A DNA stretch of 5,680 nucleotides from a virus. Its lineage: Duplodnaviria; Heunggongvirae; Uroviricota; Caudoviricetes. Numbering within the stretch: the first letter of the stretch is position 1; every line of letters starts with the position of its first letter. This document shows, piece after piece, positions 3,001 through 5,680 of this stretch. The stretch is from the IMG/VR virus record IMGVR_UViG_2657245664_000014; one strand, 5' to 3'. The position numbers were made by a program, and so were the translations under genes. The notes beneath the pieces were generated by a model. That model did not search any database and had not been told where the DNA came from. It saw only the letters and a list, made by a program, of their open reading frames with translations.

Positions 3001-3723
3001 ATGAATACTCTTACCAAAGAATGGTTACAGAACACGATTACCGGAATTGAGTCGATAATAGACGATAAATCGTTTGTATGTAGTGAAATAGCATTCGAAA
3101 TAGGTGTGGTTAACAACATACTTACCGCATTTAAAATTGCACTGGCATCGCTGGCAGCAGTATCGGATGAACGGGCAGCCTATGAATTATTTATGGAGAA
3201 GCGTTTCGGGGAATCTGTAGATCGCCGCAGGGCAAAAAATGGTGATAGAGAATACATGGCATGGGATATGGCGCTTGGCTGGATTATCTGGTGTCACCGC
3301 GCCGCCATGCTTCAGGGAGGCCAACCTGTAAACCAAACTTACAACTTGCCAGAATTAATCGAAGGCATGGAAGTTTCCATTGATGTAAGCACTTGTGATG
3401 CTGATTTAGGTAATCGCTATTTCGGCACCGTCACCGAGGCGTTAGAACTTGATACTGCCAAGAATGGTTACATCCTCCTGGTTCAGGACGCAGAGCCAAA
3501 CTTCGATGTAAATGGCAACTCTCCGGTAACTCCGGATAGTTGGATAAGCTGTAGTGAGCGAATGCCGGATGACGGGCAGTGGTGCGTAGTGAACACAGAA
3601 TACGGGTATTACGTGCAATGCTGGTCTGAAGGTCAAGGATGGCTTGGTGATGATATCAGCATCCCTGAATGCGATGTAATCAATTGGATGCCGCTACCGG
3701 AACCGCCGCAGGAGGTGAAGTGA
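3001..3723 (+). CDS. Prophage protein with C-terminal DUF551-like domain (240 aa)
   Basis: ATG 3001 lies 2 nt after the previous stop with AAGGTG upstream. The C-terminal segment WISCSERMPDDGQWCVV...YYVQCW...INWMPLPEPP resembles the W-rich DUF551 domain also seen in YfdS. The N-terminal ~170 aa is unassigned. Confidence 0.75.
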   Translation: MNTLTKEWLQNTITGIESIIDDKSFVCSEIAFEIGVVNNILTAFKIALASLAAVSDERAAYELFMEKRFGESVDRRRAKNGDREYMAWDMALGWIIWCHRAAMLQGGQPVNQTYNLPELIEGMEVSIDVSTCDADLGNRYFGTVTEALELDTAKNGYILLVQDAEPNFDVNGNSPVTPDSWISCSERMPDDGQWCVVNTEYGYYVQCWSEGQGWLGDDISIPECDVINWMPLPEPPQEVK

Positions 3724-4331: not shown

Positions 4332-4604
4332 ATGAACACCTTGTTTTTACTGATGGCTGAATTCAATACCCCTAACATTGAACTCTCAGCAGTTAGCCAA
4401 AAGTACTTTGGCATGAGTCCAGCCACGGCAGAAGCAAAAGCAAACGCTTGTAAGTTGCCCGTTCCAACATATCGCATCGGCACATCACAAAAAGCAAAAC
4501 GTTGCATCAATATTCAGGATCTTGCGGAATACATAGACAAAAGGCGAGAAGAAGGGCGTGCTGAGTGGGAAAGGGTCAGAACCCATAAACAAAGGCTCAT
4601 TTAA
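4332..4604 (+). CDS. PrtN-family / excisionase-like DNA-binding protein (putative Xis or regulator)
   Basis: ATG 4332 is preceded by GGAG (4322-4325) at 6-nt spacing. The N-terminus MNTLFLLMAEF and the core ...KLPVPTYRIGTSQKAKRCINIQDLAEYIDKRREE resemble the pyocin-activator PrtN family as recalled. It is the last plus-strand gene before the terminator, where xis normally sits. Confidence 0.65.
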   Translation: MNTLFLLMAEFNTPNIELSAVSQKYFGMSPATAEAKANACKLPVPTYRIGTSQKAKRCINIQDLAEYIDKRREEGRAEWERVRTHKQRLI

Positions 4605-4609
4605 ATAGA

Positions 4610-4647
4610 ATATGAATAAACCCATCCAAAGATGGGTTTATTCATAA
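4610..4647. terminator. Bidirectional intrinsic terminator between convergent transcription units
   Basis: A perfect 17-bp inverted repeat, atatgaataaacccatc (4610-4626) and gatgggtttattcatat (4631-4647), surrounds a 4-nt loop caaa. It lies between the 3' ends of the plus-strand chain (stop 4602-4604) and the minus-strand module (stop 4638-4640), with AT-rich flanks on both sides. Confidence 0.7.
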
Positions 4648-5099
4648 TGTTGAAGAGCAGCGAGTATCAGTTTTTTATGCCGTTTAACCATAGTTTTAGA
4701 TATCTCAACTGCACATCGAACTTGTCTCATACAATGATCTGTAATGCGACCTTTTAGCACGTCACCATATTGGATGGCTATTTTCTCTTTAATAATTTCA
4801 AGATCGAAAGCAGCATGAGCCTCAATGCAATTAACAAATGAGTCCCATTTAAGAAAATCATGGTCCTCTCTATTAATTTCGACCTGACAAGCCATAAGAT
4901 CATTGTTTCTCTTAATAAATTCATTTATATCTGAATTTATTAGAAGAACTAAAAGAGGTTCACAGCAAACAACCACCATATATTTTACTTTAGGTGGGGT
5001 CGTAAAATCACAATGAAGATACAATACATCACCGGGTGATATACCTCTTTCACGACTAAAATTAGCCTTAAAATCAGGAGGGAAACAATCACCCAGCAT
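4638..5099 (-). CDS. Uncharacterised ~153-aa protein, putative partner (candidate toxin/effector) of the Panacea-domain protein
   Basis: The minus-strand ORF has an ATG at 5099-5097, or a TTG at 5108 overlapping the upstream stop (5105-5107). It is immediately downstream of the Panacea-domain gene with no intergenic space. AT-rich codon usage; no recognised domain. Confidence 0.6.
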   Translation of the reverse strand: MLGDCFPPDFKANFSRERGISPGDVLYLHCDFTTPPKVKYMVVVCCEPLLVLLINSDINEFIKRNNDLMACQVEINREDHDFLKWDSFVNCIEAHAAFDLEIIKEKIAIQYGDVLKGRITDHCMRQVRCAVEISKTMVKRHKKLILAALQHYE

Positions 5100-5104
5100 A
5101 AGTA

Positions 5105-5632
5105 TCAATATCCGTTCTTCAGATAATCCAGTATTAATTTGCTATTTTTTAGCTGTGCAACTATCGATTCCAAAGACATCTCACCATTGTGATCTGCCTG
5201 TTCCCATGCCGCGTCATGGCTCATGGTTCTGATAGCTTCAAAGGACATGTTTCCAAGCATCGCGATAGACTTATCAATACACTCTAAATCTGAGTCACTA
5301 AAAAAGTCTTCATCAGCTTCACGGCTCGGCACAATCGTCATACCTGATACAGAAAATGCTTTTCGCACAGAATCGACATCACAACCATTAGGAATGTAAC
5401 GTCCATCTCCACGAGCAATTTTTATAATATCGTATGTGTTGCTTGCTACAGGCCCATCCTTCATAGCGTTATAGTGATCGCCCGTTATGAGGCGTCCAAA
5501 ACTTTCAAGGTGAAACCTGTCAGCATAATAAAGAATTTTTCCGACATGATAGATATCTGGGATCGGTGCTTTAGAGGCGACGTACAGAATGGCCTCTAAA
5601 GCCTTTTCTGAATCAAACCTTACATTTAGCAT
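5105..5632 (-). CDS. Panacea/DUF4065 (GepA/SocA-like) domain protein, putative antitoxin; 5' end uncertain
   Basis: The core motif HVGKILYYADRFHLESFGRLITGDHYNAMKDGPVASNTYD matches the conserved K-[IL]-LYYA...G.P...W/AMK.GPV signature of DUF4065 as recalled. The frame stays open to the window edge at 5680. In-frame ATGs lie at 5647 and 5632, the latter with a GAAGGG-like RBS 7 nt upstream, so the start is either of these or beyond the window. Confidence 0.7.
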   Translation of the reverse strand: MLNVRFDSEKALEAILYVASKAPIPDIYHVGKILYYADRFHLESFGRLITGDHYNAMKDGPVASNTYDIIKIARGDGRYIPNGCDVDSVRKAFSVSGMTIVPSREADEDFFSDSDLECIDKSIAMLGNMSFEAIRTMSHDAAWEQADHNGEMSLESIVAQLKNSKLILDYLKNGY

Positions 5633-5680
5633 CAATACACCCTTCATCCAAACAACATCGTCAAGCTCTGGCAAATGCAA

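Follow-up and report, generated by a model that had tools for sequence, protein, structure and literature searches.

The DUF4065 domain was named 'Panacea' by Kurata et al. (2022, PNAS; PMC8832971), who catalogued 88 clusters of toxins (PanT) that partner Panacea antitoxins (PanA). Two MazF-like PanTs from that catalogue, those of P. moraviensis (cluster T6) and B. ruminantium (T25), are specific inhibitors of protein synthesis neutralised by their PanAs, and the P. moraviensis pair was recovered as a complex by pull-down (PMC8832971). Cluster T5 was assigned by HHpred to EndoA/MazF (99.5%) and CcdB (98.5%); among its members is Photorhabdus heterorhabditis WP_054475897.1 with PanA WP_054475899.1, antitoxin gene first with a gap of 3 nt, and the sole T5 pair tested, from Chryseobacterium bovis, has a toxin that is toxic in E. 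coli (PMC8832971). From E. coli itself, the pair of Shiga toxin-producing E. coli (STEC) O31 (T3), which has a membrane-acting PanT, was validated (PMC8832971). Standalone Panacea domains were later found to neutralise directly and were proposed to act as sensors, with MazF/PemK among the commonest toxin folds in the resulting network (Ernits et al. 2023; PMC10440598).

Here we examine panAT, a two-gene locus on the minus strand of a 5,680-nt stretch of Caudoviricetes DNA (IMG/VR record IMGVR_UViG_2657245664_000014; the whole stretch is hereafter called the window). A preliminary description made from the letters alone had proposed a Panacea gene plus an overlapping, unrecognised partner as a candidate novel toxin-antitoxin or anti-phage module. 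The pair proved to be a prophage-borne Panacea gene with a MazF-fold partner from the T5 family, carried in a slot where sister prophages hold different cassettes.

The panA-panT pair and its conservation

The upstream minus-strand open reading frame (ORF) spans 191 aa and has no stop between the window edge (5680) and TGA 5107-5105. In agreement with the preliminary description, its product carries a Panacea domain: Pfam PF13274 (SocA_Panacea, formerly DUF4065) matched residues 48-159 of the 191-aa ORF with an E-value of 5e-20 and 72.9 bits against a gathering cut-off of 25.7, and phrog_1281 matched with an E-value of 1.5e-20. RefSeq calls it 'Panacea domain-containing protein' and starts it at TTG 5674. 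Since all the homologues extracted begin ML(N/K)VRFDSEKA, and their lengths are 171-179 aa, the real start is most likely ATG 5632, giving a protein of 175 aa; by the same N-termini and lengths, the 191-aa ORF and the RefSeq start are probably too long. PanA has no extra N-terminal domain, and no relative of solved structure was detectable from its sequence.

The second ORF, also on the minus strand, has TTG 5108 or ATG 5099 as its start and TAA 4640-4638 as its stop. RefSeq starts it at ATG 5099 under the name 'hypothetical protein' and homologues are 152-157 aa long, both of which favour ATG 5099, and the TTG start was rejected. The ORF coordinates given in the preliminary description therefore held and the overlap did not, as the latter arises only with the unsupported TTG 5108 start. 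The panA stop and the panT start are separated by 5 nt (TGA-tactt-ATG), a spacing still compatible with coupling, and tight, translationally coupled expression of the two genes is probable from this arrangement. In relatives the gap was -8 to +11 nt, with one locus at +42, and the widest range over all contexts was -8 to +66 nt.

A Panacea gene lay directly upstream of panT and on the same strand in 14/14 loci from species-representative genomes (eleven Photorhabdus, together with Proteus, Atlantibacter, Serratia and Idiomarina). Across these loci the two proteins co-diverge, at 40-68% identity for PanA and 41-63% for PanT. When all contexts were combined, the Panacea gene was immediately upstream of panT in every one of 23, down to 25% PanT identity. 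Lack of such conserved pairing was one of the outcomes that the preliminary description had named as fatal to its proposal of a PanA/PanT-type module with the antitoxin gene first, and that proposal stands. The contexts themselves were diverse. They included a metagenomic island beside an integrase and a ParE/HTH pair; Klebsiella prophages, where the pair sat between tape-measure and distal tail genes or adjoined the tailspike gene; a P2-like prophage of Rahnella, in which the pair separates gpA from the portal gene and has an AbiJ-like gene as neighbour, at a site described as a defence hotspot by Rousset et al. 2022 (PMC9122126); and Serratia phage vB_SspS_OS31, in the Q-lysis moron site between Q and the methylase and lysis genes. 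Five distant relatives (25-40% identity) had as neighbours AAA_15/21 ATPases with DUF4276, type I/III restriction-modification genes and an HNH protein. The settings are thus moron sites of prophages and neighbourhoods that resemble defence islands. Because the flanking genes changed in every context, from Photorhabdus, Proteus, Serratia, Klebsiella, Rahnella and Idiomarina to Nitrospira and metagenomes, while the pairing stayed, panA and panT move as a unit.

When 1.84 billion cluster representatives were searched with a profile of the PanT family, 1246 matched at E<=1e-3, of which 621 reached E<=1e-10; almost all are about 150 aa long. Given so large a partner family and pairing in 23/23 contexts, panA and panT are real genes and not a chance pair of ORFs. 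Neither is the family new. The T5 entry WP_054475897.1 falls in the same 90% cluster as a homologue (P0033) that is 53% identical to the window PanT (E 9e-51), which places the window protein in T5. Photorhabdus namnaonensis PB45.5 and P. khanii NC19, whose loci carry the window-type pair, are also among the species and strains listed under T5. The suggestion of a novel system with a new toxin was thus anticipated by the catalogue, where HHpred had already linked this cluster to MazF, and the pairing of Panacea with a MazF-like toxin had been validated for T6 and T25 (PMC8832971).

Fold, putative active site and decay of PanT

That the ~153-aa partner resembles nothing recognisable, as stated in the preliminary description, is true of sequence profiles and false at the level of fold. 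An AlphaFold2 model built on 26 homologues had a predicted local distance difference test (pLDDT) score of 90.3 and a predicted template modelling (pTM) score of 0.84. Foldseek comparison of this model with the PDB returned MazF-mt3 as top match (E 7.6e-4, probability 1.00), and the top matches in BFVD, a viral set, were phage proteins named 'Endoribonuclease' and 'PemK-like'. The predicted structure has the SH3-like barrel of MazF/Kid/CcdB, a fold assignment that is solid, and the order of its strands and helices matches the MazF topology. Modelled elements beyond MazF are two terminal helices, at residues 2-17 (N-terminal) and 139-148 (C-terminal), and a helical insertion at ~100-114.

Conservation was assessed in a 138-sequence alignment of relatives that are 27-65% identical to the window PanT. 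Two residues, K39 and S87, were invariant, and G23, K37, N55, S56, F82, L83 and C91 were at least 90% conserved. On the model, K37/K39 stand at the start of strand 2 and S87 at that of strand 5, while S56 comes after strand 3. The catalytic Arg of MazF is R25 in B. subtilis and R29 in E. coli, at the start of strand 2, and the catalytic Thr, T48 or T52, follows strand 3; S73 of the B. subtilis protein is an RNA-contacting Ser. An hhalign alignment, which was not significant and served for register only, set PanT S56 opposite T48 and S87 opposite S73. By this register, K37/K39, S56 and S87 would fall at the positions of R25, T48 and S73, respectively. It is plausible that Lys39 and Ser56 replace the catalytic Arg and Thr of MazF and that Ser87 replaces its RNA-binding Ser.

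The toxin gene has decayed repeatedly. In strain AST20 the A-run at 4781-4784 (minus strand) is longer by one A, which cuts PanT to 112 aa and leaves panA intact, and the 112-aa product (P0203) was present on 82 contigs. Strain AST240 probably carries the same frameshift, because its match differs in length by the same 1 nt and PanA alone is annotated there. In Photorhabdus akhurstii, P. australis, P. tasmaniensis and P. viridis, panT was frameshifted, truncated or unrecoverable, with no usable start codon in P. akhurstii. The neighbouring PanA was a full-length 179 aa in P. australis and P. tasmaniensis and shortened to 147 aa in P. viridis. Decay of panT beside an intact or largely intact panA is consistent with a cost of the putative toxin.

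The prophage edge and its exchangeable cassettes

E. coli chromosomes match the window at 100% identity, for example NZ_CP029579.1 of strain DA33137; window coordinates plus 4601 give coordinates in locus L001. The gene order in DA33137 begins with a reconstituted dusA, followed by the integrase, late genes with a contractile tail, Q and cro/cI, and continues through the early-left operon (yfdP-yfdQ-yfdR ... exonuclease, xis), panT and panA in the opposite orientation, a 5' dusA fragment and yjbM/zur. The same arrangement was described for dusA-specific integrases by Farrugia et al. 2015 (PMC4482086). As this order is that of a dusA-type integration, with the pair between xis and attR, panAT is the last cargo, adjoining attR, at the right-hand end of an E. 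coli prophage of ~38.6 kb that is integrated at dusA and has lambdoid regulation and a contractile tail. The preliminary placement of the pair as cargo just past an xis-like gene was therefore accurate. The features concerned are listed in Table 1.

Table 1. Features at and around the panAT locus, in window coordinates
Feature	Position	Strand	Details
xis-like gene (PrtN family excisionase)	4332..4604	+	RefSeq annotation; phage mEp460 homologue annotated excisionase
Variable cargo cassette	4594..5680	.	Homology to sister prophages lost at ~4582-4593, back at L001 10324-10368
Intrinsic-terminator-like hairpin	4611..4646 (L001 9212-9247)	-	Perfect 16-bp stem, 4-nt loop, T-rich tail; consensus match only
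panT, putative MazF/PemK-fold endoribonuclease toxin gene	4638..5099	-	153 aa; ATG 5099-5097 to TAA 4640-4638
panA, standalone Panacea-domain antitoxin gene	5105..5632	-	175 aa; most likely ATG 5632-5630 to TGA 5107-5105
Shine-Dalgarno-like AAGGG	5640..5644	-	7 nt upstream of panA ATG 5632; read from the sequence

The xis gene is the final gene of the early-left operon and is convergent with panT. GC content is 33-38% over panT versus 47-50% in the early operon. The terminator-like hairpin sits where these two convergent genes meet and overlaps the stop codon of panT. At the other end, a promoter-like TTGACC-18 nt-TAAGAT, again a consensus match, lies just past the window end (L001 10329-10300). 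The host dusA promoter, displaced together with the first ~35 codons of the gene (L001 10282-10740), points into the prophage toward panA, and no terminator-like site was found between this segment and panA; transcription of panA-panT in the lysogen by read-through from the dusA promoter across attR is possible on this layout.

The slot between xis and attR was compared by blastn in four genomes. In sister prophages both flanks are conserved, at 92-97% identity on the xis side and 97-99% on the attR side, and the cargo enclosed by them differs. Occurrence of each cassette was counted in 5426 complete E. coli genomes, the counts referring to the cassettes wherever they occur and not to occupancy of the slot. 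The window type, PanA with a MazF-fold PanT, was present in 46 genomes. The type found in strains D97-1 and 1428, PanA WP_000287252.1 with a 182-aa membrane-type partner, was present in 79. The 6409 type, with a third PanA (190 aa), a 128-aa protein and a 57-aa ORF, occurred in 208, and the O157:H7 type, in which a 177-aa protein lacking a Panacea domain is accompanied by a 57-aa ORF, in 358. The 57-aa ORF is common to the last two cassettes at 98% identity. About 741 genomes carry this xis. The three PanAs of the slot resemble each other weakly, with partial alignments at 20-32% identity, so that whole cassettes, and not toxins alone, are exchanged. The xis-attR(dusA') slot (L001 9195-10367) serves as a site of cargo exchange, with four cassette types, three of them Panacea-based.

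Some observations on the slot and its surroundings are recorded here. The 177-aa protein of O157:H7 strains (L030 4227-4760), the commonest slot occupant, had no Pfam match. The 128-aa partner in strain 6409 (L032 4071-4457) weakly matches the PanT motif dhdFLdhdSy, with 11.7 bits against the family hidden Markov model, and may be another distant MazF-like toxin. Escherichia phage vB_EcoM-720R4 (ON470603.1, 35 kb) is 100% identical to the window xis at its positions 34852-35056; the record ends exactly at the xis end, and the deposited genome therefore stops just short of the cargo slot. Our literature search found no paper on the E. coli panAT pair, on its slot or on DUF4065 in a defence screen. 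Farther upstream, window positions 3001-3723 (+) hold an intact 240-aa ORF that RefSeq splits into two partial DUF551 pseudogene pieces (L001 7590-7883 and 8085-8324), which suggests a chimeric or insertion-bearing DUF551 gene divided by the annotation pipeline. An Rfam search of the window gave no matches, and a repeat search found, besides the terminator hairpin, just short two-copy matches taken as chance.

Proposed mechanism, alternatives and relation to described systems

We consider it probable, without being firm, that panAT is a PanAT-type toxin-antitoxin cassette with a MazF-like toxin. The two genes would be co-transcribed from the minus strand, with TTGACC-18 nt-TAAGAT and host dusA read-through as candidate promoters; transcription would end at the hairpin, and translation would be coupled across the 5-nt gap. 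As a divergent MazF/PemK-fold protein, PanT would most likely be a sequence-specific endoribonuclease that arrests translation. PanA would most likely neutralise it by direct binding, as for other standalone PanAs, in a complex that holds the toxin inactive. PanT would be set free once PanA is lost or inactivated, whether by a phage cue or because the prophage is lost, and the outcome would be abortive infection or superinfection exclusion, a stabilised prophage, or both. An anti-phage role is plausible from the neighbourhood, and a demonstrable anti-phage effect is a tentative expectation that falls somewhat short of probable. A more ambitious version holds that the slot is a dedicated exchange site for whole defence cassettes, that the resident cassette is partly driven by the dusA promoter and that a Lys/Ser PanT is an abortive-infection effector released on a phage cue sensed by Panacea; taken as a whole, this is speculative and unlikely.

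Several results weigh against a MazF-like toxin held by PanA. Searches with PanT against Pfam, NCBIfam, PADLOC and PHROGs returned noise, and no sequence profile ties PanT to MazF. PF02452 (PemK_toxin) matched neither the window PanT (E<=1) nor the 138 relatives (E<=0.1), none of which matched any relevant Pfam family. Searching the PDB with hmmsearch and the 26- and 138-sequence PanT profiles gave an empty result, MazF included, and hhalign comparison of the PanT family profile with four MazF/Kid sequences gave probabilities of 0.8% and 2.1%, which are not significant. In PADLOC-DB 2.0, PanA had no match and PanT reached only PDC-M02B, with an E-value of 0.017 and 12 bits. The putative catalytic pair is Lys/Ser, not Arg/Thr, and its mapping comes from a weak alignment and the secondary-structure register; likewise, the candidate promoter and terminator are consensus matches. 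Described PanTs with a MazF or mRNase annotation gave uneven results when assayed: the C. bovis T5 PanA is itself toxic, so that neutralisation was never shown for T5, and a T8 'MazF' and the T1 'mRNase' from a prophage of E. coli MOD1 were non-toxic (PMC8832971).

The last two are among eight PanTs in the survey of Kurata et al. that were non-toxic in E. coli (PMC8832971), and they bear on a different reading, in which the two genes do not function as toxin and antitoxin in this host, PanT being non-toxic or conditionally active and the pairing serving some other joint function. We judge this decidedly unlikely: pairing is strict over 25-100% identity with both proteins co-diverging, the active-site-like residues are invariant, one T5 toxin is toxic (PMC8832971), and it is repeatedly the toxin gene, not the antitoxin gene, that decays. 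A PanT acting as a CcdB-like gyrase poison, or as another non-RNase protein with an SH3-like barrel, would share the fold with MazF, and seems very unlikely. Least credible to us is a type VI arrangement like SocAB, in which PanA, as an adaptor, would hand the toxin to ClpXP for continual degradation instead of inhibiting it. PF13274 was founded on SocA, and PanA has a weak NCBIfam match to SocA_antitoxin, but it does not reach the SocA equivalog NF047745 (17.4 bits against a cut-off of 190), its partner adopts a MazF fold instead of being a DnaN binder of the SocB kind, five of five PanAT pairs formed stable complexes in pull-down (PMC8832971), and standalone Panacea neutralises directly (PMC10440598).

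Somewhat stronger, though still unlikely, is the view that panAT serves mainly prophage addiction or stabilisation, a labile PanA being lost with the prophage and a stable PanT arresting cured cells. The same biochemistry as in a toxin-antitoxin cassette would suffice. The cassette adjoins attR and xis, the excision machinery, and travels with integrases and toxin-antitoxin pairs such as ParE/HTH in metagenomic islands; a role of this kind for toxin-antitoxin systems of mobile elements was discussed by Kurata et al. (PMC8832971). However, the same pair occurs in defence-cargo sites, namely the P2 gpA-portal hotspot by the AbiJ-like gene and neighbourhoods with restriction-modification and AAA_15/21 genes, and frameshifted panT alleles persist with the prophage in place, which makes retention independent of the toxin. 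We keep the toxin-antitoxin cassette with a MazF-like PanT as the preferred account of the pair.

For such a cassette, the natural series of alternatives carried by sister prophages in a tractable host would be a convenient setting for asking what Panacea senses and whether cassettes exclude phages. The pair adds a concrete E. coli prophage example to the catalogued Panacea plus MazF-fold subfamily, a cluster without demonstrated neutralisation, and its sister prophages hold different PanAT cassettes in one slot, one of them with an experimentally validated E. coli PanA. The latter is the STEC O31 PanA WP_000287252.1, an identical protein being present in the xis-attR(dusA') slot of D97-1 and 1428, with flanks 97% identical to those of the window. 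It shares with the window PanA a 40-residue local match (32% identity, E 0.001), and its membrane-type partner is unrelated to the MazF-fold PanT. The partner in D97-1 and 1428 is WP_021563277.1 (182 aa), and the accession tested by Kurata et al. is WP_000019185.1. In their Dataset S1 the STEC O31 pair is flagged 'NotPhage'; the identical PanA sits at the edge of a dusA prophage by attR (L029 4405-4878 and L031 4405-4878).

Of the described systems, T5 is closest: in T5 as in the window pair, the antitoxin gene comes first, a few nt separate the two genes and PanA lacks an N-terminal domain. The E. coli/Salmonella prophage version lay outside the one-genome-per-species set of Kurata et al. and is 41-56% identical to the Photorhabdus loci that we fetched. 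The T6 and T25 pairs are also alike in combining a Panacea antitoxin with an EndoA/PemK/MazF-like toxin, a likeness of annotation; those toxins form other clusters, and a profile search of the protein collection found no named Pseudomonas or Bifidobacterium relative of the window PanT. SocAB of Caulobacter (type VI) shares the Panacea/SocA domain family with the window PanA, and its toxin SocB is unrelated to the window toxin. Unlike classical MazEF, Kis-Kid and PemIK toxins, the window PanT has no PF02452 match, a putative Lys/Ser dyad instead of Arg/Thr and, in the model, three added helical elements. Its antitoxin is a globular Panacea domain, in contrast to MazE and Kis, which are AbrB-type DNA-binding proteins with a disordered tail. 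Overall, panAT, a putative toxin-antitoxin pair, is an E. coli member of an already catalogued PanAT subfamily, and not a new kind of system.

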